Shown here one piece after another: positions 49,621-64,000 of a stretch of DNA of 64,000 nucleotides. Within the stretch, counting starts at the first letter, position 1; the number at the start of each line of letters is the position of its first letter. The DNA is from Escherichia phage 241Ecol014PP. The notes beneath the pieces are model-generated. The model saw only the letters and a program-made list of their open reading frames with translations, was not told the origin of the DNA and made no database searches. The DNA is taken from the sequence record OR062943.1; one strand, written 5' to 3'. The translations under genes were made by a program, and so were the position numbers.

Positions 49621-49638
49621 TATAAGGAGATCTGAAAA

Positions 49639-50417: not shown

Positions 50418-50843
50418 ATGATCTATGAAATGCCAAAACTGATTCGTGACGATGCCCAAAACGCTCACACCATTATTATGGGCAAACGCATGGATATTAT
50501 TTGTCATAAAGATTTCTGGGAAGGAAGTTACTTCACAGAGTATTTTGGTAAACTGGACAATGGTCTGCTGATCCAGTTCTACACCGATGCGGAAAACAAC
50601 ATTCCCTGGGAGTTCGAAACTGAAGATGTCAATAAACTTTTCACCTTCCTCGGTATTAAGGTTAAGGCCAAGTTTGAAGAAGGTGAGTGCGACGATTGTG
50701 GATTTTATGAGGTAACAGATTTCTACCTTCCTAGCGGTAAGAACCTTTACTATGAAAGCCACTTCGGTAACTCCAATATGCCACAGTGCTGGACTGAGTT
50801 TTTTGAAATTGCGGAAGAGGAGCTGGCTTACCGTGATTATTGA
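50418..50843 (+). CDS. hypothetical protein
   Basis: 141-aa ORF; ends 11 nt inside the macro-domain gene. Confidence 0.4.
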   Translation: MIYEMPKLIRDDAQNAHTIIMGKRMDIICHKDFWEGSYFTEYFGKLDNGLLIQFYTDAENNIPWEFETEDVNKLFTFLGIKVKAKFEEGECDDCGFYEVTDFYLPSGKNLYYESHFGNSNMPQCWTEFFEIAEEELAYRDY

Positions 50844-51291
50844 TACTGTAGAGGGAGATTTAATCTCCCTTTTTAAGAGCGGTGCTGGTCACCTGATCCA
50901 CGGTTGTAACTGCTTCCACACAATGGGCAAGGGTATAGCAAAACAGATTGCCCGTGAGTTTCCTCAAGCACTGTCAGCCGACAAAGAGACTAGATACGGT
51001 TGCCTAAGTAAACTGGGTGCGTTCTCCCGATGGGAGCACTTATCTCCGATAGGTATTGTCTACGGAATCAATCTATATACCCAGTTCTACCCAGGACCTA
51101 ATGCTGAGTATTTCTCAATCCTGAAAGGCTTTGAGCTAGTCAATGAAGTATTCAGCGGATCGACTTTACCATTCTACATCCCTAAGATCGGGTGCGGCAT
51201 AGGCGGTTTGAAGTGGGAACACGTAGAGGACGTTATTAACCTTGCCACTTTCGACATAGATATTGTCGTGGTGGAGTACAAAAAGTGTTGA
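50833..51291 (+). CDS. macro-domain protein (ADP-ribose binding/hydrolase fold)
   Basis: GTG 50833 after GAGGAG; GDLISLFKSGAGHLIHGCNCFHTMGKGIAKQI and IPKIGCGIGGLKWEHV fit macro-domain signature. Confidence 0.55.
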   Translation: MIIDTVEGDLISLFKSGAGHLIHGCNCFHTMGKGIAKQIAREFPQALSADKETRYGCLSKLGAFSRWEHLSPIGIVYGINLYTQFYPGPNAEYFSILKGFELVNEVFSGSTLPFYIPKIGCGIGGLKWEHVEDVINLATFDIDIVVVEYKKC

Positions 51292-51316
51292 CGACCATCT
51301 TCTGAGGTGATATAGT
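51288..51316 (+). promoter_or_regulatory. sigma70-like promoter
   Basis: TTGACG overlapping stop codon, 17-nt spacer, TATAGT. Confidence 0.5.
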
Positions 51317-51345
51317 TTCCACGACAACTAAGAGAGGAGAGCACT

Positions 51346-51516
51346 GTGGAGACTAAAATCTTAATTCTTGCTGTGGTAGATACAACCGAAGGAGCTATAT
51401 TCGAATCTGCAGGAGGGTATTTCTACCTACCATACGGAAAAAGAACTTCCGAGCCAAGTAAAGATTCAATCCTCAAAGTGTTCCCGTGTGCTTTCTGGCT
51501 GGAGATTTTGGTATAA
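51346..51516 (+). CDS. small hypothetical protein (56 aa)
   Basis: GTG after AGAGAGGAGAG, downstream of the 51288 promoter; below track cutoff. Confidence 0.3.
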   Translation: METKILILAVVDTTEGAIFESAGGYFYLPYGKRTSEPSKDSILKVFPCAFWLEILV

Positions 51517-51542
51517 GATTGCAGAGGATTTGGGAGAGAATT

Positions 51543-51737
51543 ATGAGAAACAAGAAAGAACTTTACTCCGGTGAGTGGATCAACGATCAACAGGTGGGAG
51601 AGGTAACCTGCTTCCGATGTTTTACCAGGTACAATCTTAAAACTGCACCAAAAAGTGTTCCAAAGACTGACGGTTACTACATAAAAGAACCTCATTGCCC
51701 AAAATGTAAATGCCGATTGTACTGGAGCAATCTATAA
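51543..51737 (+). CDS. zinc-ribbon protein
   Basis: ATG 51543; CFRC..(24 aa)..CPKCKC pattern; track ORF starts at GTG 51486. Confidence 0.4.
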   Translation: MRNKKELYSGEWINDQQVGEVTCFRCFTRYNLKTAPKSVPKTDGYYIKEPHCPKCKCRLYWSNL

Positions 51738-51741
51738 GAGG

Positions 51742-51769
51742 TTGACATCTGAAAACTGCAGTGTATAGT
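51742..51769 (+). promoter_or_regulatory. sigma70-like promoter
   Basis: TTGACA, 16-nt spacer, TATAGT. Confidence 0.5.
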
Positions 51770-51800
51770 ATACGCATAAACTAACAGAGAGCGATGTATT

Positions 51801-51992
51801 ATGGTAATTTTTAACCGGGATGGTATCATAGTTAGACAGCACCCGTTCCTTGAATACTATCAAATTGAGCAATGGTGCTACGGGGATTGCAGTCACTCCT
51901 ATGGGCAAAGTTGGGGATATCGTACAGTTTTTGAATCAACAGACCTTGACAAAGTAAGACAGAAAGTTTTAGAACTTATTAACAACAAGTGA
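51801..51992 (+). CDS. hypothetical protein
   Basis: 63-aa ORF. Confidence 0.35.
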   Translation: MVIFNRDGIIVRQHPFLEYYQIEQWCYGDCSHSYGQSWGYRTVFESTDLDKVRQKVLELINNK

Positions 51993-52001
51993 GTATGATA
52001 T

Positions 52002-52334
52002 ATGGTAACATTAGAAAGACGTAAAGCTATCGCCGCCACACTGGCAGACATCTTTTGGGATTGCAACTTAAAAGATACCCGAAATTGTGGCGCATCTGTA
52101 GATGTATTATTCCCACGGCCCACCATTGTTGCAATGGGAAACCTGTTAAACGTAGTGTACGGAGCATGGGACAAAGAAGGTGGATTCTATGTCTGGCAAC
52201 CTGACTACGGAGCCTGGAAAGAGGTAAGGGGTGCGGATGACTTTGGGCCTACAGTTGCTAAGATGGATGGCTGGCAAATTTATGTTGGAAACGACATGGA
52301 ACTGAAAGGCGAAATTGTTTACTGGTTACCTTAA
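52002..52334 (+). CDS. hypothetical protein
   Basis: 110-aa ORF. Confidence 0.4.
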   Translation: MVTLERRKAIAATLADIFWDCNLKDTRNCGASVDVLFPRPTIVAMGNLLNVVYGAWDKEGGFYVWQPDYGAWKEVRGADDFGPTVAKMDGWQIYVGNDMELKGEIVYWLP

Positions 52335-52354
52335 GAAAGTGCAGGAGATAAAGC

Positions 52355-52600
52355 ATGAACAAAGAATGGACATTAGTAGACGGCGTTAAAAACATGCCTC
52401 TCGGAAAGTATATCGTAGCCATGACGGATGAGAATGGCAATGTGGATTTCGGAGCTTGCGAGGTTGTTCTTGCAGGATCTGGTAACTACGTGGACAAAAC
52501 TGGGATAATTAACGGTCAGTTCTACTTTGATCACAACCCTGTTGTAGCGTATATGGCTATGCCAGAGTTCAAGCTACCAAAGGAGTGCGCTAATGTTTAA
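52355..52600 (+). CDS. hypothetical protein
   Basis: 81-aa ORF with GCAGGAGA RBS. Confidence 0.4.
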   Translation: MNKEWTLVDGVKNMPLGKYIVAMTDENGNVDFGACEVVLAGSGNYVDKTGIINGQFYFDHNPVVAYMAMPEFKLPKECANV

Positions 52601-52790
52601 GCTAAAATCCGCATGGAACATTGCTGTAGGAGATGAGATCCGCATCCCAGGCGGGAAGACCATTATGAAGATATCTCGTATTGAGTACGAAGGTGACCGT
52701 GTATTCCACATCTTTGCAGAAGATGGTCGAGAAATTTATGTGCAGGCAGGCTCTCACATCTATATCCGTAAGAAAGGAGATGACAAATGA
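52593..52790 (+). CDS. hypothetical protein
   Basis: 65-aa ORF. Confidence 0.4.
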   Translation: MFKLKSAWNIAVGDEIRIPGGKTIMKISRIEYEGDRVFHIFAEDGREIYVQAGSHIYIRKKGDDK

Positions 52791-53113
52791 CAGAGATCAT
52801 CATTTCAACTGCAGGGTATGTATTCCTGACAATCCTTGCGCTGACTATTTTGGTGGTGGTATATGGGATTGTTATTCTCCCTATTCTTGAGACAATTAGT
52901 TTGTGTCGGTGTTGGAGAAAGGCTTACGGTCCACAGCCGTGGAAGGACTGGCCCCACCTGGTGCACATAGCGTTCTCTTATGCCTACGATCACTCTAGCA
53001 GTGCATGCATAACCGGATACCACGCCCACAATTGGAGATGGGAAGGGTTGAGGAAGTGGAATGTTACAAAGACTATACCTCTGCGCATGTACAAAGGAAA
53101 AAGGAGGGATTGA
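52787..53113 (+). CDS. membrane protein
   Basis: 108 aa; long N-terminal hydrophobic segment YVFLTILALTILVVVYGIVILPIL. Confidence 0.4.
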   Translation: MTEIIISTAGYVFLTILALTILVVVYGIVILPILETISLCRCWRKAYGPQPWKDWPHLVHIAFSYAYDHSSSACITGYHAHNWRWEGLRKWNVTKTIPLRMYKGKRRD

Positions 53114-53757
53114 TGGGAATACCTGTTAAAGACAGAAAAATATGTGGTCGTGGAGTAAACGATTTAAAAGACAAAGTCCCAATGTACCAATCTGTTAATG
53201 GTAAGAGAGTACCAGAACCTCACTATGCTACATGGAAAGCATTATTCCAGAGGTGCTACGGCGATAACTCAAAGTACCATACAGGTTGTGAAGTTGTAGA
53301 AGATTGGTGGTTGTTCTCAGAATTCTGGAAATGGATGGATACACAAGAGTGGAAAAGAAACGCTAAGAAGTTCACTCTTGACAAAGATCTGAAAATCCCC
53401 GGAAACAGAATATACTCCCCAGAAACATGTATGTTTGCTCCACCACAAATAAACACCTTATTTGGCATAAGACAGGCAGCACGAGGGGATTTACCTTTGG
53501 GTGTGACACTTAGAAAAGATGTAAACAAGTACCTCGTGCATTGTCATCAAGATGGAAAAATTGTTCATGGTGGTCATTTCGCTGATCCGCAGATAGCACA
53601 CAAGGTGTGGCAAGAAATGAAACTTGAGGAGATGAAGCTTCAAGCTATTAAAAACAAAGATGAGATTTGGCTGTTCGCCATTAAACGTGCAATAACTATC
53701 CTTGAGAATGATTTGAAAAATAATAAGGAGACTATAACATTGGTGAAATTTATTTAA
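53113..53757 (+). CDS. HNH_3-type endonuclease
   Basis: ATG 53113 after AAGGAGGG; Trp-rich region then TLDKDLKIPGNRIYSPETCMFAPPQIN core; track ORF begins at 53005. Confidence 0.5.
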   Translation: MGIPVKDRKICGRGVNDLKDKVPMYQSVNGKRVPEPHYATWKALFQRCYGDNSKYHTGCEVVEDWWLFSEFWKWMDTQEWKRNAKKFTLDKDLKIPGNRIYSPETCMFAPPQINTLFGIRQAARGDLPLGVTLRKDVNKYLVHCHQDGKIVHGGHFADPQIAHKVWQEMKLEEMKLQAIKNKDEIWLFAIKRAITILENDLKNNKETITLVKFI

Positions 53758-54085
53758 GATATTTATGGTAGTATTTATTTTAAAATTATAAAAATTTTAG
53801 GTGATGAGGGAAAATATGTAATGGATTTTCCCTTATTTATCAGATATTTGCAGATATTTGGAAATCCTTAGAAAATCAGAAAATGGATCGAAAACTAAAA
53901 TGGATTTTTCAGGGTAGACACGATGAGCTGAACCACTCATCCTATCGTTTGCGGCATATTCCGGACTACCATTCCAGATTTTCCGCGTATGCTCACATCC
54001 TCCTACTAGAACTTCCCCCACTTATCCTTGACCTTTTATGGTAATAATATAACCACTATCTTGAAGTTGCGGTGCAGCTTTCCAG

Positions 54086-54173
54086 GTACTCGATCTGTTT
54101 TTCGTTTCAAAGATTGAATTTTCTGAAAATTTTTCTCGATAAATTTCTTAGTACTCGATCTGTTTTTCGTTTT
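54086..54173. repeat. 22-bp direct repeat pair (GTACTCGATCTGTTTTTCGTTT) within ORF-free region
   Basis: copies at 54086-54107 and 54151-54173; surrounded by further short repeats (AAATGGAT x3, CAGATATTTG x2). Confidence 0.6.
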
Positions 54174-54377
54174 CTGAATCAGATTTTCTGGAAATCGTTC
54201 CGGCGCTCGACCTAAAATTTTTGGGGGCGAAATCGATTTTTCGTTTTCAGAAATGGATTTTTAAAATTTATATATGGGGATATTTTATGGGATATTGTTT
54301 TATAGGAAATTGTTACGGAGGATAATTAGCATGCTAATTAAATTTATTAAATGTGAGGAGTTCTCATTTAGAATTTT

Positions 54378-54392
54378 GAATGATAATCATTC
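54378..54392. promoter_or_regulatory. 15-bp palindrome GAATGATAATCATTC (operator-like)
   Basis: near-perfect dyad symmetry directly upstream of first GC-rich element copy. Confidence 0.35.
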
Positions 54393-54409
54393 TCGTTTGC
54401 AGAATAACG

Positions 54410-54432
54410 GGCAGGCCCGGTGATTGTCTCCC
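54410..54432. repeat. GC-rich element, copy 1 (direct)
   Basis: GGCAGGCCCGGTGATTGTCTCCC; 22/23 match to reverse complement of 62071-62093. Confidence 0.6.
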
Positions 54433-54548
54433 GGCCCCTGTTGCCCCGGCTTGTTATTATAGTATCACACAGGACAAAGAAGGCAAGGATTTTTTGCATA
54501 AATTTTTAAATGATAATGATAACCGTTCTCATTTTATGCAGCGCCCAT

Positions 54549-54586
54549 CTCCGGTGGTTGTCTCCCCCGTCACCGGTGCCTGCCGT
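54549..54586. repeat. GC-rich element, copy 2 (direct, longer)
   Basis: CTCCGGTGGTTGTCTCCCCCGTCACCGGTGCCTGCC; matches reverse complement of 62051-62093 with few mismatches. Confidence 0.6.
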
Positions 54587-54755
54587 CCTTTCGATAGGTA
54601 TATTGTGCCACCTGGCGGGGCCGCTGTCAACACTTTTCAAAAAATTTTTCTAACCTGGTGCGCTAACCGTTGCAACCTGGCGGGGCCAGCCTGGCAGGGG
54701 GGTGAAAGCTTGCAAACCTGGTAGTAGGGTAAACAATTGAAGAGGAGGTACAAAA

Positions 54756-54914
54756 ATGAAAGGTAATGCTACTCACCTGGAAAATGTAGCGATTAATGAC
54801 GCTGAGGCTATCGCCCTGGTTGAAAAGGCTATGGCGGGAGCGTTGGAACATAAAGAAGAGTACGAAAAAATGGTGGTTAACCTGGAGGGGGGCGGCAGGT
54901 GGATTCTATCATAA
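54756..54914 (+). CDS. small hypothetical protein (52 aa)
   Basis: ATG 7 nt after GAGGAGG; below track cutoff. Confidence 0.4.
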   Translation: MKGNATHLENVAINDAEAIALVEKAMAGALEHKEEYEKMVVNLEGGGRWILS

Positions 54915-54933
54915 AAATAATTTAAAATAGTCG

Positions 54934-54961
54934 TTGACAACAAGGTTAATCATGGTATTAT
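54934..54961 (+). promoter_or_regulatory. sigma70-like promoter
   Basis: TTGACA, 16-nt spacer, TATTAT. Confidence 0.5.
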
Positions 54962-55011
54962 TACCCTACAAGGTGAACAACACCGCACTAACCAGTAAAG
55001 AGGATAAATTT

Positions 55012-55209
55012 ATGAACGCATACGGGATCAAAGTACGTCGCAACACTCGCCAGGTGGTCACCAATCAAGTGATTTGCCGGGTGGATGTAACCATCAACAA
55101 CGGGCAAGGCCTTTATAAATTTCGTCGCGGTCATAGCTATACTCTGCAACAGCTTAATCGTTGCGCCCTGACAAAAGGTCAGATCAACCACTGGTTTAAT
55201 AAAAAATAA
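55012..55209 (+). CDS. hypothetical basic protein
   Basis: ATG 55012 after AAAGAGGA; track ORF begins inside the promoter at 54934. Confidence 0.4.
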   Translation: MNAYGIKVRRNTRQVVTNQVICRVDVTINNGQGLYKFRRGHSYTLQQLNRCALTKGQINHWFNKK

Positions 55210-55212
55210 ATA

Positions 55213-55241
55213 TTGACATGTAGTCTGAAACAAAATATACT
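55213..55241 (+). promoter_or_regulatory. sigma70-like promoter
   Basis: TTGACA, 17-nt spacer, TATACT. Confidence 0.6.
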
Positions 55242-55273
55242 GAAAGCACAAAAGACACTAAGAGGATAAAATC

Positions 55274-55672
55274 ATGAAAACCACAACCTTTAATTTTGAC
55301 AATGCTGACTTCTCTTTTTCTGATGTTAAAAGCTGCCGCCGTGATCGCGGATTCTACAAGGCCTATAATCTGGTTGGCCTGGACGATGATAATAATTTGC
55401 ACGAAGTAGCGGAGATCCGGTACTATGCCGCCGCCAGCGGTAACACTCACTACTGTGTATTTTGGATTCACGACAACAAGAACAATAAGTACGGTTATAC
55501 TGGCGGCAAGGCGAGCGGTCACGGTTATGATAAAGCCAACGCTGCACTTGAAAGCGCATTAAGTGCCATGGGAATCACTGCCGACGGCTGGATCTATGAA
55601 GAAGAGTTTTTGGCGGCACTTGCTAACCACCTAGGCTATAAAAAGCACATTGTAACATGCGCCCACGAATAA
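55274..55672 (+). CDS. hypothetical protein
   Basis: 132-aa ORF, AAGAGGA RBS; CTG/GGC/CGC-rich codon choice. Confidence 0.45.
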   Translation: MKTTTFNFDNADFSFSDVKSCRRDRGFYKAYNLVGLDDDNNLHEVAEIRYYAAASGNTHYCVFWIHDNKNNKYGYTGGKASGHGYDKANAALESALSAMGITADGWIYEEEFLAALANHLGYKKHIVTCAHE

Positions 55673-55682
55673 AAAAAAATTA

Positions 55683-55710
55683 TTGACACGCTGCAAAATT
55701 AAAGTAAACT
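55683..55710 (+). promoter_or_regulatory. sigma70-like promoter
   Basis: TTGACA, 16-nt spacer, TAAACT. Confidence 0.55.
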
Positions 55711-55720
55711 AGACACAAAA

Positions 55721-55739
55721 GGCGGGAATGTTTCCCGCC
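55721..55739 (+). promoter_or_regulatory. conserved 5' leader hairpin GGCGGGAA-TGT-TTCCCGCC
   Basis: perfect 8-bp stem downstream of promoter, upstream of RBS; near-identical hairpin at 57922. Confidence 0.5.
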
Positions 55740-55758
55740 AGCACAAAGGAAAAAGATC

Positions 55759-56163
55759 ATGAATAAGAACGTACGCCGCATCATGAACGAACTGGCAAAC
55801 GATGAAAAAATTATTGATATGCATTTGGTCAACATTTGCCGCCGTTGTGTAACATACAACAACCGAGCCGCAAAAGCGCGTGAGATGAACGCAAAAGGCA
55901 CCTTAAAGCCATTCCAGGTGGTGGTAAAGGCCATTAAAGATGTAACTAATACGGCAAACCAGGTACAGGGGAACACCAACGAGAGTACCAATATTGATCC
56001 GGCTTACATCATGAAACGGATCCGGACCTGCAAGAACAAAGAGCAAGTGTATAATGTTATAGACTGGTTGGATTCTATGGGCGATGTGGTTTACAATAGG
56101 TTTTCTGCAGCTATTGAGATCCAGCTTGACAGGTTGGACGGTAAAGTACTGAAAACTTACTGA
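55759..56163 (+). CDS. hypothetical protein
   Basis: 134-aa ORF. Confidence 0.45.
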   Translation: MNKNVRRIMNELANDEKIIDMHLVNICRRCVTYNNRAAKAREMNAKGTLKPFQVVVKAIKDVTNTANQVQGNTNESTNIDPAYIMKRIRTCKNKEQVYNVIDWLDSMGDVVYNRFSAAIEIQLDRLDGKVLKTY

Positions 56164-56164
56164 G

Positions 56165-56205
56165 TTTATTTTTAGATGGCCTTGACACCAGGGCCATCAA
56201 TAAAG
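56165..56205 (+). repeat. 41-bp promoter/palindrome cassette, copy 1
   Basis: TTTATTTTTAGATGGCCTTGACACCAGGGCCATCAATAAAG; dyad GATGGCC..GGCCATC surrounds TTGACA. Confidence 0.65.
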
Positions 56206-56243
56206 TAAACTAATCTCAACTAAGCGAAAAAGGGGGCTTTAAG

Positions 56244-56363
56244 ATGAGCGCTACACGCCAATACACAAAGGTAACTATTATCGTTTGCGTTGTCGGTTAC
56301 ATCCTGGCGCAAATGTTAATGAGTAGCGCTAACAGTTTTGCAAAATTTTTCTTAAATTTTTAA
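56244..56363 (+). CDS. small hydrophobic peptide (39 aa)
   Basis: ATG after AAAGGGGG; single transmembrane-like segment; below track cutoff. Confidence 0.3.
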   Translation: MSATRQYTKVTIIVCVVGYILAQMLMSSANSFAKFFLNF

Positions 56364-56391
56364 TTGACAAACTAACTTAGATCAATATACT
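56364..56391 (+). promoter_or_regulatory. sigma70-like promoter
   Basis: TTGACA, 16-nt spacer, TATACT; followed by leader hairpin GGGAAAACTTCCC at 56405. Confidence 0.55.
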
Positions 56392-56442
56392 TAAACACGT
56401 AAACGGGAAAACTTCCCAGAGCACACAAAAGGAGAAAACACC

Positions 56443-56784
56443 ATGACTACTATGACCGCCGAAGAAAAAGCCCTGCAGATCGCCGCTCTGAAAAAACAGA
56501 TTGCAGAACTTGAAGACAAGATCGACAATTTTGAAATCGACGAAGACAAACACGACGATAAATATGATGAATGGTTAGACGAGATCTACGGCGAAATCAT
56601 GATCGGAAACATTTCTTTTCTTCCGTCGCGTATCCTCAAGGAGCTAGATCCTATCGCTTACCGCTGCGGATTTAGCGACTACATCGACAGCCTGGATATT
56701 GAGGACGATGAAGAATACCAAGAATTACAGACAGAGCTTGAAGAAGTGAAAGAAGAGCTTGCAGAACTGGAAGAAAACGAGTAA
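56443..56784 (+). CDS. highly acidic protein (candidate DNA mimic)
   Basis: 113 aa with roughly one third Asp/Glu and few basic residues; AAAGGAGAA RBS. Confidence 0.45.
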   Translation: MTTMTAEEKALQIAALKKQIAELEDKIDNFEIDEDKHDDKYDEWLDEIYGEIMIGNISFLPSRILKELDPIAYRCGFSDYIDSLDIEDDEEYQELQTELEEVKEELAELEENE

Positions 56785-56826
56785 ATTTATTTTTAGATGG
56801 CCTTGACACCAGGGCCATCAATAAAG
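56785..56826 (+). repeat. promoter/palindrome cassette, copy 2
   Basis: ATTTATTTTTAGATGGCCTTGACACCAGGGCCATCAATAAAG. Confidence 0.65.
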
Positions 56827-56859
56827 ATAATTTATTAACACCATGAAAGGAGAAAGTAC

Positions 56860-57213
56860 ATGATCAGCGGGGCTAGTTTTATTATTGGCGCTATTGCTAC
56901 GGCTTTAATTGTAAACAAGATCCAATCTAAAAACGAAAAAGATAGCAACGCGCTCACAGAATACCCATTTTGGGTATTCAACGACAACGAAGACTACATA
57001 ATCAAGTACAAGAATGAGAAGGGCGACCAGGTAACACCGCGACCGATCCCGGCTTACAAAATGCAAGAAACACTATACCGCCTAAAGGCTGGAGGCGCAA
57101 AAATCGTAGACTTTTGGGGATATGATTGCAAGGATCAGGAGGTTATAAAACGGCGTATCCGGGCGATTCAGGCAAATATTGAGATCAGTAAGGGGGGAAG
57201 TTATGAAAATTAA
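56860..57213 (+). CDS. membrane-anchored protein
   Basis: 117 aa; N-terminal hydrophobic helix ISGASFIIGAIATALIV. Confidence 0.45.
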   Translation: MISGASFIIGAIATALIVNKIQSKNEKDSNALTEYPFWVFNDNEDYIIKYKNEKGDQVTPRPIPAYKMQETLYRLKAGGAKIVDFWGYDCKDQEVIKRRIRAIQANIEISKGGSYEN

Positions 57214-57400
57214 TTTCGAAAAAATTGTAAAGCGCCCCCACGATTCCGAAGAGCTGCCGGAACGCCGCCAGCGCAACAATAAACTGAATAAACCGAAAAG
57301 ATTTGGGAAGATCTGGCGGAATCATTATGATCGTAAACTGCCTGTCCTACTTTTGGAACGTGAACGACAGGCGGAACGATACCGCCACAAAGGCAAATAA
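57203..57400 (+). CDS. small basic protein
   Basis: ATG 57203 after AGGGGGGAAG; Arg/Lys-rich; overlaps end of upstream gene. Confidence 0.35.
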   Translation: MKINFEKIVKRPHDSEELPERRQRNNKLNKPKRFGKIWRNHYDRKLPVLLLERERQAERYRHKGK

Positions 57401-57408
57401 CAACCAAC

Positions 57409-57438
57409 GCCCCGCCATTGTGCGGGGCTTTTTATTTC
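57409..57438 (+). terminator. rho-independent terminator
   Basis: GCCCCGC-CATTGT-GCGGGGC then TTTTTATTTC. Confidence 0.7.
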
Positions 57439-57570
57439 TATCCTACGAATAGCGCCCCTGGTTGGCCCTACAAACGCCACAAAAGCCCCTACCTATGCAA
57501 TCCCCTTTCTTAGCCTGAAAACATCACCCAGGGCCGTTTTATGGTGTTAAAAATATCTTTTATTTAAAGC

Positions 57571-57598
57571 TTGACACCTTGGAATCGCCTGATATACT
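57571..57598 (+). promoter_or_regulatory. sigma70-like promoter
   Basis: TTGACA, 16-nt spacer, TATACT. Confidence 0.55.
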
Positions 57599-57633
57599 AA
57601 CCACATCAAAGCAAGAAGGAAGGAGTAAACGCC

Positions 57634-57894
57634 ATGCGTAAATTAAAAAATTTTGATAAAGTCGATGTTGTCCTGAATAATTTTTACTACTGCAACAACA
57701 AGGCCATTTGGTGGCGTGATAGTTCCACCGATAAAGTCAAGGCGCGCTTTCTCCAGGGGCACTGGCAAGGCCGCCCAGTGATTAAAATCATGGGGCAATT
57801 GGTAGCGTTTAAAAATTGCCGCCGTGTTGATGACGTTGAAGAGATTCTAAACATTTTACGCCACAATAATTTAAAAAATAGTGTTGACAAGTAA
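57634..57894 (+). CDS. hypothetical protein
   Basis: 86-aa ORF with AGGAAGGAG RBS. Confidence 0.45.
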   Translation: MRKLKNFDKVDVVLNNFYYCNNKAIWWRDSSTDKVKARFLQGHWQGRPVIKIMGQLVAFKNCRRVDDVEEILNILRHNNLKNSVDK

Positions 57895-57911
57895 GCCTCA
57901 ATAAGTATACT
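57884..57911 (+). promoter_or_regulatory. sigma70-like promoter
   Basis: TTGACA overlapping stop codon, 16-nt spacer, TATACT. Confidence 0.55.
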
Positions 57912-57921
57912 TAAACACGCA

Positions 57922-57940
57922 GGCGGGAAAACTTCCCGCC
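57922..57940 (+). promoter_or_regulatory. conserved 5' leader hairpin GGCGGGAA-AAC-TTCCCGCC
   Basis: same stem as 55721-55739, located between promoter and RBS. Confidence 0.5.
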
Positions 57941-57968
57941 ACTAACAAAGAAAATAGGAGAAAATATC

Positions 57969-58592
57969 ATGACCACCGTTAACATTACTACAGGTTACAA
58001 TTTATCTTTCGACGTGCTGACCGACGAACAAAAAGAAAAAGCCGTTGAAATGGTCCGCGAAAGAGAAGAACACAGCGGGGATAACTTTTTTGCAGAAAGT
58101 GTAATTGAAGACTATAAAGAATATGTCTTTCCAGAGTATGGCCTTGAAGATACCAAGGTACATTGGTCCGGCTTTTGGTGCCAGGGTGACGGCGCGTCAA
58201 TCAGTGCGGAAAACGTGGATTTAGAAAAATTCTTGCGTAAAGTAAAGGCCCTGACCAAGTTCCGATCAATTCGTCACTTGTTCGGCACAATGCACGATGG
58301 CGAGCTATCCGCAAGTGTTGAGCGTGATCCATATAGCCGCTATAGTCACGAAAACACTGTAAGCGGGTACATCGATACTACATGGCTAGACCTGACCGCC
58401 AAACAAGAAAATAAAGTGGAAGATCTGGAAGAGCTGATCACCGAGACGGTACGGGAGCTATCCCGCAAGGTTTACGTAGACCTGGAGGGGGCCTATCTTG
58501 AACAATTCACTACCGAAAACCTGATCGGCCTTATCAAGGCCAATGATTGGCGGTTTGATGTGGATGAAGATGGCGAGATGACTTTTTCATAA
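57969..58592 (+). CDS. hypothetical protein
   Basis: 207-aa ORF, acidic. Confidence 0.45.
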   Translation: MTTVNITTGYNLSFDVLTDEQKEKAVEMVREREEHSGDNFFAESVIEDYKEYVFPEYGLEDTKVHWSGFWCQGDGASISAENVDLEKFLRKVKALTKFRSIRHLFGTMHDGELSASVERDPYSRYSHENTVSGYIDTTWLDLTAKQENKVEDLEELITETVRELSRKVYVDLEGAYLEQFTTENLIGLIKANDWRFDVDEDGEMTFS

Positions 58593-58682
58593 ATAAAGTG
58601 TTGCAATAACCTAAAAACCTGCTATATTAAAACTCAAGGGGGCAAGACGTTTGCCCCCACACAAAACAAAGAGGAAAACATC

Positions 58683-59063
58683 ATGAAAAACACTACTAAA
58701 GCTATTGACACCGTTATGTTTAACCTGGTTACCTTTCGCGAGGATATGAAAGATCTTCCACGTGAAACAGTGTGCGATCACATTGAAAACTATCGCAAAC
58801 TAATCAAAGAGTTGCCTTTAAAACGTGATCAGTATGCGGCTAACGCCATGCTTAATGCCATGATCAAAAAGATGATCCAGTGTGATTTAACTCTAGCCTA
58901 TGATTATGCGGGTGGTCGTTTTGCAGTATACAATCAGCCCGTGCCTGGTATGAGCACCACAGAAGAATTGCACGCGTTAAATCTAAAACAAGACGTGTGG
59001 GATAGTATGCCCCGCGTGGTGGTATGGGTAGAAAGCGGGAAGATTTACGGCGATAATTTTTAA
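58683..59063 (+). CDS. hypothetical protein
   Basis: 126-aa ORF with AAGAGGAAA RBS. Confidence 0.45.
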   Translation: MKNTTKAIDTVMFNLVTFREDMKDLPRETVCDHIENYRKLIKELPLKRDQYAANAMLNAMIKKMIQCDLTLAYDYAGGRFAVYNQPVPGMSTTEELHALNLKQDVWDSMPRVVVWVESGKIYGDNF

Positions 59064-59073
59064 TCAGGTAACA

Positions 59074-59102
59074 GGCGGCGGCATATTTGCCGCCTTATTG
59101 TT
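59074..59102 (+). terminator. rho-independent terminator
   Basis: GGCGGCA-TATT-TGCCGCC then TTATTGTT. Confidence 0.6.
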
Positions 59103-59130
59103 AAACAGAACTGCAAAAGAGGTACATAGA

Positions 59131-59502
59131 ATGGAATTTATTATTTTGGCTGTATTGGTTGCCTTGTTTAACGCCTGGATCGCTGGCAAGATGGGCAGAT
59201 CCGCCTTTTTATGGTTTATTATATCTATTTTCCTGGGGGTGGTTGCAACTATTGTATTGGTTATCCTTGCAATTGTTGACAAGGGGAATAATAGAAAGGG
59301 TAAAGTATTTTCAGACCTGTACGACGCTCAAACGTTTGTCAACGCATATTATAGTGATCTCCCAGTCTCCCTACGCTGCAGCCTGGCACAACAAGTTTTC
59401 GATGAGGCTAAAACCAGAGATCAAGCCCATGAGATATGTTTAACTGAGGCGGATCGCCTATTTGAGAGGAATAGAAAATATGTGGGCCAACCGTTTAAAT
59501 AA
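59131..59502 (+). CDS. two-helix membrane protein
   Basis: ATG 59131 after AAAGAGG; two hydrophobic segments in first 60 aa; track ORF starts at TTG 59098. Confidence 0.45.
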   Translation: MEFIILAVLVALFNAWIAGKMGRSAFLWFIISIFLGVVATIVLVILAIVDKGNNRKGKVFSDLYDAQTFVNAYYSDLPVSLRCSLAQQVFDEAKTRDQAHEICLTEADRLFERNRKYVGQPFK

Positions 59503-59725
59503 TGCCACGTTAATTAATCCCTTTAGTGAAGATTTGAAGCCAGCCGCCTGGCGTGATGGATTCAATACCGAACGCTTTATTTTCAGGCCTGATCTTGAGG
59601 AATTTTATAACAATGGATCGAACAACGACAGAGATAATTTTTCTTGTGATGTGCGTAGTGATGGTACTCCTGGGGGCCATTGTAAACCACGTCACTACTA
59701 CCAGGAGGAAAGGTGGAGACGATGA
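59480..59725 (+). CDS. hypothetical protein (uncertain)
   Basis: ATG 59480; overlaps both neighbours; weak RBS. Confidence 0.25.
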   Translation: MWANRLNNATLINPFSEDLKPAAWRDGFNTERFIFRPDLEEFYNNGSNNDRDNFSCDVRSDGTPGGHCKPRHYYQEERWRR

Positions 59726-59841
59726 CACCCAAGGATAAGCCACGCACCGATAAGGCGCGCCGTGTTATGGTGTGGCTGGAGATCATCGCCCTTGAAATAT
59801 TGTTAGGCGTAGGGATGTACTTTATCGCTATAAGTAACTAA
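59722..59841 (+). CDS. small membrane peptide (39 aa)
   Basis: ATG after AGGAGGAAAGGTGGAG; C-terminal hydrophobic helix; terminator follows. Confidence 0.35.
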   Translation: MTPKDKPRTDKARRVMVWLEIIALEILLGVGMYFIAISN

Positions 59842-59846
59842 GAACG

Positions 59847-59876
59847 GCCCCCGATCATGGGGGCTTATCTTTTTAA
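59847..59876 (+). terminator. rho-independent terminator
   Basis: GCCCCC-GATCAT-GGGGGC then TTATCTTTTT. Confidence 0.7.
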
Positions 59877-59980
59877 AAAATTTTTCTTCTAGGGTGTTGC
59901 AATCCGGTCCGGAATGTGGATAATGACAATCAACGGGGAGCTAATCCCCACCAACACAAAAACCAGAAAGGAGAAACAAA

Positions 59981-60181
59981 ATGAGCAACAATATCCGCGT
60001 TATTAACTTCAAAAAAGAAGAAAAAATTGCCGTGCTGATTGACGGTCAAGAAATCTTCAAGGGCGATTATGAAGATCATCAAACGGCGATTAGTATCACT
60101 CGCGTGATCGGTTACCATAATTTCTACCCCCAAGGCGCTGAGGCAGCAGTTAAACGAATCAAAGAGATTGTAGGCCTGTAA
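59981..60181 (+). CDS. hypothetical protein
   Basis: 66-aa ORF, AAAGGAGAA RBS. Confidence 0.4.
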   Translation: MSNNIRVINFKKEEKIAVLIDGQEIFKGDYEDHQTAISITRVIGYHNFYPQGAEAAVKRIKEIVGL

Positions 60182-60182
60182 A

Positions 60183-60224
60183 ATTTATTTTTAGATGGCC
60201 TTGACCCCAGGGCCATCAATAAAG
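60183..60224 (+). repeat. promoter/palindrome cassette, copy 3 (TTGACC variant)
   Basis: ATTTATTTTTAGATGGCCTTGACCCCAGGGCCATCAATAAAG. Confidence 0.65.
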
Positions 60225-60272
60225 TAAATTTAAACCCTGTTAAAATAATCAGTACAAAAAGGAGTAATGATC

Positions 60273-60572
60273 ATGTTTATACCCGCCAATAATCTTTATT
60301 TCTTTGATGGTCAGATCGTAGACGGTGTGGAAGTGGAGATCACCGGGTGCCCTGGCGGTCAGGCTATGACTTTTCGGAATAATGCCTTTGATGATTCTCA
60401 TATCGTTATGAGAATGGAAGTTACGAAGCTGGACGACAAGAAAACACTTATTGACTATTCTGTGAAAGATCATCCAGACTACCGCATGATCCATGGCGAT
60501 TTGTGCATTGTTGACCGTGACAAGGTGGGCGGCATTGTGATCGCTATTGTGAACGATGTTTTCTCAAACTAA
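60273..60572 (+). CDS. hypothetical protein
   Basis: ATG 60273 is 8 nt after GGAG; track start 60267 is too close to the RBS. Confidence 0.4.
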   Translation: MFIPANNLYFFDGQIVDGVEVEITGCPGGQAMTFRNNAFDDSHIVMRMEVTKLDDKKTLIDYSVKDHPDYRMIHGDLCIVDRDKVGGIVIAIVNDVFSN

Positions 60573-60589
60573 TTTCAGCAGGTGATTTT

Positions 60590-60940
60590 ATGAAAGTTAA
60601 ACTATATTACCTTAATGAGCTTAACCCCCTTGCCCAGGTCCGCGCCCTGGCTAATACCTTGATTTGTGAGAAATCTGCATATTGTGTTGAGCTTAACGCC
60701 ATGCGTGAACGTCTTAAAGGGGGTTACTTTGACATCCATGCTGCAATCAACGGCCTGAATATGGAATTTATACGCTTACGTAACAGCCGCCGGAATCTGG
60801 TAAGAATGGAACAAGATCCGGCCCACCTTCGTAAGCTGGTTATTGAAAACCATCTGATGTTTAATGCCGAGGGTGATTATTACCATTTTCACCGCAAACG
60901 TTGGTACCGTGGCGGCAATACAAGCAAGAATGCAAAATAA
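60590..60940 (+). CDS. hypothetical basic protein
   Basis: 116-aa ORF. Confidence 0.4.
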   Translation: MKVKLYYLNELNPLAQVRALANTLICEKSAYCVELNAMRERLKGGYFDIHAAINGLNMEFIRLRNSRRNLVRMEQDPAHLRKLVIENHLMFNAEGDYYHFHRKRWYRGGNTSKNAK

Positions 60941-61143
60941 GGCCCCTAGCAGGGCCTGCAGCTATATAATCACATAAAGGCTATGCGGTTGCATGGCCTT
61001 TATTATTTTAGCGTTACAGCGACCCCCCAAGGCGCTTAAAAAATTTTTTAAAGAAGTACTTGCATCATTCCCGACAATATGGATAATAAGAGTTATCGAG
61101 GGGGCGGCCCCAATCATTAACCAGATAGATAGGAGTTAAAACC

Positions 61144-61428
61144 ATGGCTATTGTTACCGCTGGTGATGTAGTAGAAATGGAAGCAAAATACTTAAAAGCT
61201 GGTATGCATATCATCCGCAATGATCTTGAACTGGTCCTCACTATGGTTGATTATAACCCTGGTCAAGATTATCCAAGTGTTGACTACTTTTTCCAGTATG
61301 TTGATGAAGAATTAAAAGAGGATGAGGCTTATCAGGGTGAATTTTGTAATTTCTTTTGCCCTGATGAGGTTGTAAAAGTTATTTATCGACCTGGCGTACC
61401 TTTCCCACTGCACGCTATCAATAAATAA
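61144..61428 (+). CDS. hypothetical protein
   Basis: 94-aa ORF with AGGAG RBS. Confidence 0.4.
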   Translation: MAIVTAGDVVEMEAKYLKAGMHIIRNDLELVLTMVDYNPGQDYPSVDYFFQYVDEELKEDEAYQGEFCNFFCPDEVVKVIYRPGVPFPLHAINK

Positions 61429-61485
61429 ACCTGGAGGGGCCGAAAAGGCCCCCCCAATTATGAAAATAAAGAGGGGCAAATCATC

Positions 61486-61719
61486 ATGATGGAACAAATT
61501 AAACGCGCTGAGGCTATTAATGGCAATGTGATCTATTTTGTCAGCAATAACGAAAAAGGCGTACCATATGCGGCGGTAATAGTACAGCCTGACGGCAATT
61601 ATTGGTTTACTGTATACGGATCTTATTCTTTCGGGCGTCCGGTGCATGATAGAATTTTGAAAGTAGCGAACCCCACCGGGAAGAATATCACGGCAGAAAA
61701 ATTTTTTGAAAATAATTGA
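61486..61719 (+). CDS. hypothetical protein
   Basis: 77-aa ORF. Confidence 0.4.
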   Translation: MMEQIKRAEAINGNVIYFVSNNEKGVPYAAVIVQPDGNYWFTVYGSYSFGRPVHDRILKVANPTGKNITAEKFFENN

Positions 61720-61743
61720 CAACGTTTTAAATTAGTTTAAGAT
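61716..61743 (+). promoter_or_regulatory. sigma70-like promoter
   Basis: TTGACA overlapping stop codon, 16-nt spacer, TAAGAT. Confidence 0.4.
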
Positions 61744-61793
61744 GTATCACGTAGGGCGGCAATGGTGCCGCTCACAACTGGAAGGAAAACACC

Positions 61794-61997
61794 ATGACTA
61801 CAGCTAACCGCCTGATCGCCGTCCTGAACAAAGCAAAGGCTAACCGCCTGGATGTTCAAATCAAAGAGCAAGCAAATGGCGAGATCCTTGCTACGGTGTC
61901 CGATGGCGGTTATGTATCGGAATCATTTTTATCAGGGAGCTTAGATCATCTTGTTTGGAAATTAGAAATTATCGTGGAGGATATGCAGATCATCTAA
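61794..61997 (+). CDS. hypothetical protein
   Basis: 67-aa ORF with GGAAGGAAA RBS. Confidence 0.4.
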   Translation: MTTANRLIAVLNKAKANRLDVQIKEQANGEILATVSDGGYVSESFLSGSLDHLVWKLEIIVEDMQII

Positions 61998-62006
61998 TCT
62001 TTACAA

Positions 62007-62037
62007 AACAGGGCTTGTTTTTGTCCTGTTTTTTGTT
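62007..62037 (+). terminator. rho-independent terminator
   Basis: AACAGGGC..GTCCTGTT stem then TTTTGTT. Confidence 0.55.
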
Positions 62038-62050
62038 ATACTTGTTTCAC

Positions 62051-62093
62051 GGCAGGCACCTGGCGACGGGGGGAGACAATCATCGGGCCTGCC
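62051..62093. repeat. GC-rich element, copy 3 (inverted relative to copies at 54410 and 54549)
   Basis: GGCAGGCACCTGGCGACGGGGGGAGACAATCATCGGGCCTGCC; ends GGCAGGC/GCCTGCC are self-complementary. Confidence 0.6.
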
Positions 62094-62118
62094 TGTCATA
62101 TAAGAACTATAAAAACCG

Positions 62119-62147
62119 TTGACATCTGCCAGGTGGTGGGGTAACAT
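62119..62147 (+). promoter_or_regulatory. sigma70-like promoter
   Basis: TTGACA, 17-nt spacer, TAACAT. Confidence 0.45.
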
Positions 62148-62201
62148 TTATCTTGAAGGGGCAAAAGTGCCCACACAACAACCAGAAGAGAGGAAAACAT
62201 T

Positions 62202-62474
62202 ATGTCAAGCTGGATTAATCAAGAAGTCGAATCACGTTTTAACGCTATTTGGGATCTCATCGAAAAAGAGGACGGAACATCAAGCCCTTATCTCAATAAT
62301 CTTGAATTCCATTTCGTGGAAGCGATGAACGCAGAACATGATCACGAAGGTGGTGCGGATGAATTCGCTAAAGGATATGGCTTCAACAATGCCAACGAAA
62401 TGATCGAGGCGGTTGTACTCCAGGCTGAGGAAGATTATCAATTAAAAACGCTTGAATTCTGCCGCCGTAAGTAA
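62202..62474 (+). CDS. hypothetical acidic protein
   Basis: 90-aa ORF with AGAGAGGAAAA RBS. Confidence 0.4.
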   Translation: MSSWINQEVESRFNAIWDLIEKEDGTSSPYLNNLEFHFVEAMNAEHDHEGGADEFAKGYGFNNANEMIEAVVLQAEEDYQLKTLEFCRRK

Positions 62475-62536
62475 TAAGATAATGACACGGGCCAAAAGGC
62501 CCACTAAACAAAAACCACATAAAGAGGAAAAACATC

Positions 62537-62800
62537 ATGAAACGTCTTGATCAGCTCAAATTAGTTCAATATATGGCTTATCGTGTTCTTGAAGTCCAGA
62601 AAGGTAGCAAAAAAGAGGTTTGCGAGAAAGCTTATAAGATCTTCACTCGCAAAAAAGATGACTGGATGCTGCGCCAGACTAAAAAGGCTGACATCTTGGG
62701 GTACCTGGAAGAAGAGATCCGCCTTGAAGAGCAAGAAGAGATCCGCCGTAGTGAGGCAGATTATCAGGCAGCTTGGGAAAACTGGATGAGCAACAAATAA
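62537..62800 (+). CDS. hypothetical protein
   Basis: 87-aa ORF with AAAGAGGAAAA RBS. Confidence 0.4.
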   Translation: MKRLDQLKLVQYMAYRVLEVQKGSKKEVCEKAYKIFTRKKDDWMLRQTKKADILGYLEEEIRLEEQEEIRRSEADYQAAWENWMSNK

Positions 62801-62819
62801 TACAACAAGGTGCACGGTC

Positions 62820-62845
62820 AGGGGCTTAAAGCCCCTTTCTTTTTG
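62820..62845 (+). terminator. rho-independent terminator
   Basis: AGGGGC-TTAAA-GCCCCT then TTCTTTTTG. Confidence 0.75.
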
Positions 62846-63449
62846 TCCGCTATTCCCTATCACAAACGGCCCCGCCTGACAAGTGGAATAATCAACAAGC
62901 CAGCAATTTCCCACACTGTACAAACATACAGGTAAAATAACTATTGCATAATTTTTCATTGTGTGGTAGCAGGGCCATTTTTACCCGTTTTTCCTCCCAA
63001 AATTGCACGTAATGCCGCTATTGCATAAATTTTAACCTGATGCACATCTTCAATATCTTGTCAACAAATAAAAATTCTTATAAGTCATACACTTACATAA
63101 CCACAAAAGCGCGTTCTACGTGAAAAATCGAGTATAACTATAGCCGCCAGATCTCAGAATTTACGTACGCTCACCATTCTATAGCCTGCTAAGTATTTAT
63201 TCCAACCATAGAATAACGGAATAGTCAATACCTGCATAAAATAATTATTCGTTTAAATTGCATAACATAAATCAGCCAGGGTGTCAACATTTTTCGTAAA
63301 CAGTCCGAAATTATCACTGTGAGTTATCATAAACAGAGAAATCTTTAGTCGTCTAATGTTTACTGTACGTTACTATACTAACCGGAATCATTAGATGACT
63401 AATAGAAAAGATAAGAAATAATCAACAATACAATTATTTTATCTGTAAC

Positions 63450-63680
63450 AATAAGGCAACTATGCAAACGAATGGCATGGCGCGACGGAGTCGCGACATA
63501 ATATAAAAGCAGTAACCATCACCCCCGTGATAGTTTGTCTGCAAACTATTAATCAGATCATAGTTGCCTTGTATTTAGTTAATCATGACATAACAAGCAA
63601 GGCAACTATAGATCTTCTAATAGTTGCCTTGCTTTTATATTATGTCATAAATTATTAACATGCAAACGAATGGCATGGCT
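63450..63680. repeat. operator-like repeat cluster (coordinates approximate)
   Basis: 11-mer AAGGCAACTAT in four alternating-orientation copies; 19-mer TGCAAACGAATGGCATGGC twice; 17-bp inverted pair GACATAATATAAAAGCA / TGCTTTTATATTATGTC. Confidence 0.55.
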
Positions 63681-63714
63681 TATCATTTTTGAGTAAATAG
63701 TCTACACGTGAACA

Positions 63715-63860
63715 GTTAGCTATGTAAACTATTAGTCATGTAAACCGTTAGGCATGTAAACAGTAGAGGGAGTGAATAGTGACAGCGTAAACAGTCAGGC
63801 ATGTCAATTATGTCAATCGTGTCAGTTATGTCACAGTATGTCTAAAGTGTCAGACAAGTT
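63715..63860. repeat. iteron-like periodic repeats (coordinates approximate)
   Basis: ATGTAAAC at 16-bp period (3-4 copies) then six 9-bp-period TGTCA units. Confidence 0.55.
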
Positions 63861-64000
63861 TTTCTCCTCTTTGTCAAGTGCTGCATGAAAAATTTACAAA
63901 CTGGTATGGTAGCATTTTTGCGGCCCTGTTTACATTCAGTAATGTATGTATGACCCTTGTTGTGTGGGCGTTTAGACGTCTAGACGGTTGGAAGTCTACA

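Follow-up and report, generated by a model that had tools for sequence, protein, structure and literature searches.

In a 64,000-nt stretch of Escherichia phage 241Ecol014PP (OR062943.1; the whole stretch is hereafter called the window), a dense array of small genes at positions 54756 to 62800 is probably an early accessory gene module of an rV5-like myovirus that is transcribed by the host RNA polymerase. The first-pass annotation of this DNA had described a discrete block of about 20 small open reading frames (ORFs) that has terminators and promoters of host type and differs from the tail genes in codon usage, and this description held. The block contains 22 plus-strand ORFs of 39 to 207 aa, the sizes and order of which agree with those in annotated relatives. 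The ORFs form no fewer than 13 short transcription units with sigma70-type promoters, divided by six predicted intrinsic terminators. Such an anatomy, in which a homologue of the T7 early gene 1.1 also figures, fits an early or host-takeover region, and the products of the block may act on the host or on host defenses. As a feature, the block is real but of an ordinary kind; its general traits have already been published for rV5.

The window belongs to an rV5-like myovirus (Vequintavirus), and nearly all of the 184 phage records that match the 8.1-kb block are rV5-like coliphages of this genus. The layout of the window was obtained by projecting the annotated relative EduardKellenberger (MZ501061) onto it (Table 1). 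Each of the 22 ORFs matched a PHROG family of unknown function, and searches of Pfam, PDB sequences, and folds returned informative homology for ORF 8 alone, the homologue of T7 gene 1.1 (PF08200, E = 8.5e-11, 42.6 bits against a cut-off of 21), the presence of which argues for the early character of the block. T7 gene 1.1 itself has no assigned function. The acidic, basic, and membrane small proteins noticed in the first-pass annotation are indeed present, with net charges reaching -27, -22, +12, and +11 and a predicted membrane segment in four ORFs; ORF 10, with a net charge of -22, gave a confident structure model that matched no known fold. The alternative ATG of ORF 2, at 54952, overlaps the -10 box of the promoter that serves this ORF, which makes 55012 the more likely start. 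Several relatives annotate this ORF as 258 nt, and the 198-nt version, which has its own ribosome site, appears more plausible.

Promoters were scored as matches out of 12 to the sigma70-type consensus. A site with 9 to 11 matches lies directly upstream of 13 of the 22 ORFs, and ORF 18 has a weak candidate with 8. A TTGACA-type promoter for each ORF, as had been proposed, was thus an overstatement, whereas the enrichment in promoter density is real: 10 of the 22 strict TTGACA-N16-18-TAnnnT sites of the window fall in the block, which makes up 12.6% of the sequence (binomial P = 1.6e-4), and all 10 are intergenic. The view that terminators often accompany these genes was also borne out, by six hairpins with T-rich tails. 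Eight other GC hairpins without a T tail sit 19 to 34 nt before start codons, between promoter and ribosome site, and three more enclose a -35 box. The latter belong to a 52-nt module, D1, present in three copies of 88 to 94% identity that start with TTTATTTTTA; two further repeat pairs among the modules are 76 to 78% identical. The rV5 paper proposed a late-promoter-like motif, TGGTAAAATA, which occurs in the 19-kb tail region at seven sites with at most one mismatch, those at 3941 and 10272 lying 42 and 39 nt before two tail-gene starts. Since it is also found sporadically elsewhere, a role as late promoter is suggestive only.

Codon usage separates the block from the tail genes. AGA and AGG together account for 14% of the arginine codons in the block, 27 to 35% in the three middle blocks, and 63% in the tail genes (block versus tail, P = 1e-20), which agrees with the AGA/AGG richness that had been ascribed to the latter. 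The block is correspondingly higher than the tail genes in CGC plus CGT (70% versus 28%), GGC (41% versus 21%), and GCC (28% versus 17%), and lower in AGA alone (9% versus 40%), ATA (7% versus 26%), and ACA (22% versus 36%). The proposed shift therefore stands for arginine, glycine, and alanine, and extends to isoleucine and threonine, but fails for leucine, where block and tail genes do not differ in CTG (P = 0.06) or in the TTA and TTG that the tail genes were thought to favor (P = 0.6). The summed synonymous chi-square between block and tail genes was 292.7 (41 degrees of freedom), and the block also differs from the three other blocks. Scored per gene, the block was the more host-like, with a median adaptation index of 0.680 against 0.574 (P = 5e-5). 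Relative synonymous codon usage correlated with E. coli K-12 genomic usage, for which the reference table came from background knowledge and not from a tool, at 0.68 for the block and -0.05 for the tail genes. Since GC content is similar throughout and the blocks compared all lie on the plus strand except 19121-26084, base composition does not explain the difference. The same host-like pattern is shared by the rII genes outside the block and, as the first-pass annotation had supposed, by the SSB-like gene (47763-48989; AGA/AGG in 0 of 9 arginine codons), which encodes a 408-aa protein with the C-terminal tip FDDSIPF and without a Pfam match.

An anticodon cat reads methionine or, after modification, isoleucine. 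The tRNAs of the relative MZ501061 are Arg-tct, Thr-tgt, Met/Ile-cat, Pro-tgg, Tyr-gta, and Ser-tga, and the three codons most enriched in the tail genes (AGA, ATA, and ACA) are those read by its tct, cat, and tgt tRNAs. An identical tRNA set is listed in the rV5 paper (PMC3606486). By analogy with T4, the codon shift is best explained as an early/late partition by timing and tRNA supply and not by foreign origin, which is disfavored because the SSB-like and rII genes share the shift while the homing-endonuclease genes are the real outliers. Under this explanation, the block genes would be translated first, from the tRNA pool of the uninfected cell, and the late structural genes would follow once the phage tRNAs supplement rare host tRNAs. 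It is improbable that the cause lies instead in the level of expression, or in drift among selfish and structural genes. Such an origin would fit the three HNH homing-endonuclease genes outside the block, which are as rich in AGA/AGG as the tail genes (29 of 38), the wide variation in codon values among the replication-block genes, and the lack of a shift in two codons of phage tRNAs. However, it accounts poorly for a graded series across same-strand blocks of similar GC content, for the pairing of the three most shifted codons with phage tRNA anticodons, and for a pattern common to 20 of the 22 block ORFs, the sequences of which are unrelated.

The label "early" itself is drawn from promoter type, codon usage, and analogy, and, besides the provenance of the reference codon table, several observations weigh against it. 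Eight ORFs (1, 8, 12, 13, 14, 17, 19, and 22) have no promoter of their own. ORFs 12 and 13, a two-helix membrane protein annotated as "putative holin" in a relative and its neighbor, carry late-like codons (AGA/AGG in 5 of 7 and 4 of 10 arginine codons, codon adaptation index of 0.57 to 0.60), and they are preceded by a terminator with no promoter in the intergenic sequence; these two genes may thus differ from the other block genes in temporal class. The window holds no tRNA genes, so that the tRNAs are those of a relative, and CCA and TAC, also codons of phage tRNAs, show no early/late difference. Accessory ORFs found only in relatives are low in AGA/AGG (16%) but without low ATA or high GGC. 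Finally, transcription of the block runs toward the genome end close by, which is not the case in T7.

The first-pass annotation had also seen the block as a self-contained cassette bounded by inverted repeats. That it was horizontally acquired or is mobile as a unit, with codons reflecting another donor, is very improbable, and this reading is largely refuted. Inverted GC-rich copies do occur near both borders, and the protein content of the block is replaced almost entirely between genera, only ORFs 3, 6, 8, and 11 having homologues in the loci and genera sampled. ORF 11 shares 69% identity with a protein from Phapecoctavirus ukendt, a phage of a different subfamily (L127, 5459-5812), which, with almost no other block ORF common to these genera, suggests a recent exchange. 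However, the block is syntenic throughout the genus: at least 80% of it is covered in a single place in 88 of the 184 records, mostly at 90 to 95% identity, and it is colinear with slur16, HdK5, JLBYU08, and EduardKellenberger. Furthermore, domain searches found no recombinase or transposase in any of the 22 ORFs, the codon pattern recurs in the SSB-like and rII genes outside, and the inverted elements read as outward promoters.

Mobility is better placed at the level of single genes. Compared with four relatives, the block has four indel junctions, all at intergenic modules of promoter, hairpin, or terminator and three of them with 18 to 26 nt of shared sequence. The repeated regulatory modules would act as recombination sites at which single genes are added, deleted, or swapped. 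A parallel is provided by the promoter-early stem-loop (PeSL) cassettes in the hyperplastic regions of T4-type phages, whose motif contains the breakpoints at which genes were gained or lost (Arbiol et al. 2010, PMC2839356; Comeau et al. 2014, PMC4122927). PeSLs are defined by an AT-rich tract, a sigma70 promoter, a G/C stem-loop in various positions, a Shine-Dalgarno sequence, and a start codon (PMC2839356). In the block, the 13 intergenic promoters with 9 to 11 matches, the stem-loops at the -35 box or in the leader, and the location of the junctions inside modules agree with this definition; neither of the two papers mentions rV5-like phages.

The inverted GC-rich copies said to bracket the block exist, but they are of two kinds, and the conserved kind does not truly bracket it. 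The first kind is the 11-mer CTGGCGGGGCC (four matches against 0.41 expected), the copies of which enclose exactly the interval delimited in the first-pass annotation. It sits in promoter-like sequence resembling other block promoters, and in the relatives examined its inverted partner is absent. The second is a longer element with cores at 54417 and 54551 (minus strand) and 62071 (plus strand), three matches against 0.09 expected, which occupies the same places in relatives and whose right copy is internal to the block, ahead of the last two ORFs. Profile searches found the same inverted pair, 7 to 10 kb apart around an array of small ORFs, in a Certrevirus, a Justusliebigvirus, and an uncultured 146-kb contig. 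All 17 copies examined, which come from at least five genera, carry on the strand that points away from the array a TTGnnn -35 box and, at a spacing of 16 to 18 nt, a -10 box, the end of which lies 27 to 31 nt from the conserved core (one copy has 37). These boundary promoters score on average 8.9 of 12 against 6.8 +/- 1.2 in shuffles, and on the opposite strand the positions are scattered; the spacers between the two boxes are not conserved. Because of these boxes and their spacing, the elements are read as paralogous promoter-plus-leader modules, conserved across two phage subfamilies and predicted to fire outward from the center of the block: the two at 54486 and 54630 to the left, and the one at 62015 to the right, as far as ORFs 21 and 22.

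Rfam, searched both at its gathering threshold and with E values of up to 5, gave no match for these elements, and the E. coli chromosome no homologue; a scan of IMG/VR with the 16-mer core returned mostly chance matches in unrelated contigs. RNAalifold on 16 copies yielded just three base pairs, and by eye the stems fell in shifting registers. We do not claim the GC leader as a structured RNA, given that there is no consensus fold and that the G-U evidence on its strand is contradictory.

Beside the left modules lies a palindrome, TTGAATGATAATCATTCTCG, that resembles a Fur box. It agrees with the 19-bp Fur consensus at 15 of 19 positions and with the 7-1-7 core with two mismatches, and it shares 16 consecutive bases, ATAATCATTCTCGTTT, with the E. 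coli promoter of fhuA, a classic Fur-repressed gene. A homologue of this box stands beside the element in four other genera, with one mismatch to the 7-1-7 core in phiTE and ukendt. In three other genera, Fur-like boxes number 7 to 11 per 25 to 28 kb against 0.03 expected and are clustered at both ends of the array, while the window has only one strong box. More than 120 IMG/VR viral contigs, from very diverse sources, contain exact matches to the 19-mer AATGAKAATCATTCTCRTT, often as tandem copies and beside promoters. By our estimate, chance would give about two, and this excess favors a host factor over a phage-specific protein; Fur-type boxes may thus be widespread in phage genomes. A scan of a genome collection used a 24-mer that was too specific, returning two bacterial loci without iron-related neighbors, and is uninformative on Fur. 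An inward-facing Fur-controlled promoter was also considered and rejected, as in several genera the second base of its -10 candidates is not the conserved A, and the candidates vary in position.

The 1-kb region to the left of the block holds no ORF conserved among the relatives compared (a 62-aa minus-strand candidate was not conserved as an ORF) and is not enriched in GATC. Across genera its parts follow one order: promoter, GC leader, one to four Fur-like palindromes, three to four repeats of some 65 bp that combine a GATCGAG core with A5T6 tracts, and two CAAATATC motifs. Within 53758-54400, the 43-nt block AAAAATCCATTTTAGTTTTCGATCCATTTTCTGATTTTCTAAG is invariant in five of six relatives (the sixth diverges), in surroundings that differ by 12 to 28%. 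This region may be an origin, a protein-binding array, or another control region. The boundary modules and the left region might together serve as an origin of replication or exert some other control at the DNA level, though this is doubtful. The outward promoter would then transcribe through the G-rich leader into the AT-rich iteron-like repeats, possibly gated by Fur. The conserved order of parts, the invariant block, the lack of a conserved ORF, the density of Fur-like boxes in other genera, and the 16 nt in common with fhuA are consistent with such a role. On the other side stand the unenriched GATC, the lack of any recognized DnaA-box-like motif, the single strong box of the window, the missing consensus structure of the leader, and a Fur box downstream of the outward start site, unlike in fhuA.

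Since protein content turns over between genera while the noncoding frame and its Fur-like boxes are kept, we consider that an undescribed control element may be involved. In a more specific version, which we regard as rather unlikely, the small-ORF array would be framed by a conserved noncoding control system of Vequintavirinae and Stephanstirmvirinae, made of outward host-type promoters with a GC-rich leader, Fur operator arrays, and iteron-like repeats. Such a system would couple a process at the genome end, either replication start or transcription into the flanks, to host iron. If true, it would amount to an iron-sensing switch in strictly lytic phages, and an iron response would matter for how these phages perform at infection sites and in the iron-poor gut.

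The distance of the block to the genome end follows from HdK5, which has a direct terminal repeat of 459 bp (record positions 1-459 = 138870-139328), published as a terminal redundancy of 458 bp (PMC6563267). In the alignment, window position 64000 corresponds to HdK5 position 312, which by homology would put the closing terminator about 1.5 kb from the physical end, the end of the window inside the repeat, and the start of the 459-bp repeat near 63853. The AT-rich region beyond the block contains short repeats (Table 1).

Several insertions were observed elsewhere in the window. The DNA polymerase gene (39884-44574) has three relative to EduardKellenberger: an in-frame insertion of 996 nt (41897-42892), likely an intein, the beginning of which gave a weak match to the Hint domain; a group I intron (43267-43502, RF00028); and, just after the polymerase gene, a free-standing NUMOD4/HNH endonuclease gene (43927-44574). 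Another HNH endonuclease gene (53113-53757, PHROG 953), with tail-like, AGA/AGG-rich codons, is inserted at 53101-53851; none of the four close relatives compared has it.

Table 1. Coordinates of the features of the window discussed in the text (promoter scores are matches out of 12)
Feature	Position	Strand	Remark
Tail-fiber and baseplate genes	38-19072	+	projected from EduardKellenberger
Minus-strand gene block	19121-26084	-	projected from EduardKellenberger
rIIA/B, helicase, primase, DNA polymerase	26164-44574	+	projected from EduardKellenberger
Small ORFs	44634-53757	+	projected from EduardKellenberger
Gene-free 1-kb stretch	53758-54755		left of block
Small-ORF block under study	54756-62800	+	ORF calls
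AT-rich stretch without genes	62846-64000		runs to window end
ORF 1	54756-54914	+	no own promoter
ORF 2	55012-55209	+	own promoter; annotated as 198 nt in a relative
ORF 3	55274-55672	+	own promoter
ORF 4	55759-56163	+	own promoter
ORF 5	56244-56363	+	own promoter (D1 copy 1)
ORF 6	56443-56784	+	own promoter
ORF 7	56860-57213	+	own promoter (D1 copy 2)
ORF 8	57203-57400	+	basic, 65 aa; no own promoter
ORF 9	57634-57894	+	own promoter
ORF 10	57969-58592	+	acidic, 207 aa; own promoter
ORF 11	58683-59063	+	own promoter
ORF 12	59131-59502	+	no own promoter
ORF 13	59480-59725	+	no own promoter
ORF 14	59713-59841	+	no own promoter
ORF 15	59981-60181	+	own promoter
ORF 16	60267-60572	+	own promoter (D1 copy 3)
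ORF 17	60590-60940	+	no own promoter
ORF 18	61144-61428	+	weak candidate promoter
ORF 19	61486-61719	+	no own promoter
ORF 20	61794-61997	+	own promoter
ORF 21	62202-62474	+	own promoter
ORF 22	62537-62800	+	no own promoter
ORF 2 promoter	54934-54961	+	TTGACA-16-TATTAT, 11/12
ORF 3 promoter	55213-55241	+	TTGACA-17-TATACT, 11/12
ORF 4 promoter	55683-55710	+	TTGACA-16-TAAACT, 10/12
D1 copy 1, ORF 5 promoter	56162-56213	+	AT-rich tract, hairpin enclosing -35 TTGACA, -10 TAAACT
ORF 6 promoter	56364-56391	+	TTGACA-16-TATACT; repeat D6; followed by leader hairpin 56405-56417
D1 copy 2, ORF 7 promoter	56783-56834	+	one-gene indel junction versus relatives
ORF 9 promoter	57571-57598	+	TTGACA-16-TATACT, TG
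ORF 10 promoter	57884-57911	+	TTGACA-16-TATACT
ORF 11 promoter	58601-58628	+	TTGCAA-16-TATATT, TG, 9/12
ORF 15 promoter	59897-59924	+	TTGCAA-16-GATAAT, 9/12
D1 copy 3, ORF 16 promoter	60181-60232	+	TTGACC-18-TAAATT
ORF 18 weak candidate promoter	61060-61087	+	TTGCAT-16-GATAAT, 8/12
ORF 20 promoter	61716-61743	+	TTGACA-16-TAAGAT; left junction of 1.6-kb difference from slur16/HdK5
ORF 21 promoter	62119-62147	+	TTGACA-17-TAACAT
Predicted terminator after ORF 8	57409-57428	+	dG -14.5, 7 T in tail
Predicted terminator after ORF 11	59073-59095	+	
Predicted terminator after ORF 14	59846-59865	+	
Predicted terminator after ORF 17	60974-61003	+	
Predicted terminator after ORF 20	62005-62032	+	includes -35 box of right boundary promoter
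Predicted terminator closing the array	62820-62836	+	indel junction versus two relatives
GC hairpins without T tail (1)	55721-55739, 57922-57940, 58638-58658, 59935-59949	+	
GC hairpins without T tail (2)	61436-61452, 61754-61773, 62159-62172, 62489-62502	+	
One-gene difference	56810-56835		shared overlap in D1 repeat (copy 2)
1.6-kb difference from slur16/HdK5	61721/61733		begins at promoter 61716
257-nt difference	62513-62530		versus relatives
550-nt difference	62820-62837		closing terminator, versus two relatives
11-mer CTGGCGGGGCC, two copies	54612-54622, 54677-54687	+	left of block
11-mer CTGGCGGGGCC, inverted copy	62868-62878	-	one mismatch; just past closing terminator
Left module L1	54404-54486	-	predicted promoter TTGCCT-16-TACTAT 54486-54459, core 54432-54417; points away from array
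Left module L2	54540-54630	-	predicted promoter TTGACA-17-CACAAT 54630-54602, core 54566-54551; tandem duplicate
Right module R	62015-62100	+	predicted promoter TTGTTT-16-TATACT 62015-62042, core 62071-62086; points toward ORFs 21-22
Fur-box-like palindrome 1	54376-54395		adjoins left elements
Fur-box-like sequence 2	54505-54531		weaker, two overlapping matches
Three 47-nt direct repeats	54076-54261		spaced 65 and 74 nt; A/T tracts, CTCGATC cores
16-nt unit ATGTAAACCATTAGGC, x2.5	63722-63761		AT-rich end region
9-nt unit ATGTCAATT, x4.6	63801-63842		AT-rich end region
Inverted GCAACTATG motifs	near 63446-63577		AT-rich end region

For annotation, the block may be labeled an early accessory module of Vequintavirus. 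Its 13 to 14 predicted promoters represent compact, ready-made E. coli promoter and leader parts, and the modular junctions would mark sites where genes can be removed from or inserted into broad-host-range therapeutic phages without damage to regulation. The steep codon split, paired with three phage tRNAs, offers a clean case for examining why lytic phages carry tRNAs.

Searches of the literature on rV5-like phages returned no published transcriptome and no report of Fur boxes or anti-defense functions. The rV5 paper (Kropinski et al. 2013, PMC3606486) describes a region of 88 mainly small ORFs, an ORF-free stretch of 2.6 kb, 33 sigma70-type promoters, 20 terminators, and six tRNAs, and sets only whole-genome codon use against the tRNAs; it does not include a block-wise codon analysis, an analysis of modular indels, or the boundary modules and Fur-like boxes. 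For this phage group, we found no description of the strength of the codon split and its tRNA logic or of PeSL-like junctions, and none of boundary modules with Fur-like boxes, which are the least expected feature of the block.

The junction modules resemble the PeSLs of T4-type phages in having an AT tract, a sigma70-type promoter, and a stem-loop over or after it, followed by a Shine-Dalgarno sequence and a start, in being repeated among small orphan ORFs, and in containing the junctions of indels and replacements. They differ in belonging to an unrelated lineage (Vequintavirinae) with other module sequences, known here from sequence alone, so that analogy is to be expected, and in that only some of them are close repeats (D1 and the two weaker pairs). 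Likewise, the Fur box of fhuA overlaps the -10 box and start site, while that of the window lies about 45 to 65 nt downstream of the outward start site and not over the promoter, a placement again read from the DNA.

At the scale of the whole block, the closest parallels are found in SPO1 and T5. The terminal redundancy of the Bacillus phage SPO1 reportedly contains its host-takeover module (Stewart et al. 1998), and T5 has its pre-early (first-step-transfer) region at the genome end. Like these, the rV5-like block has about two dozen small genes of unknown function in many short operons with terminators and promoters of the strong host-sigma type and, by homology with HdK5, would lie at the physical end of a large linear genome. 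It differs in lying 1.5 kb inside the end and not within the 459-bp repeat, and in being transcribed toward the end; we know of no host shut-off or two-step DNA entry for this block. As for codon usage, Cowe and Sharp reportedly tied, in 1991, the codon classes of T4 to expression time and phage tRNAs. The arginine contrast of the present phage is unusually steep by comparison and its timing is inferred, but the two systems are alike in that early genes have host-like codons and late genes use the codons of the phage tRNAs, here AGA, ATA, and ACA.

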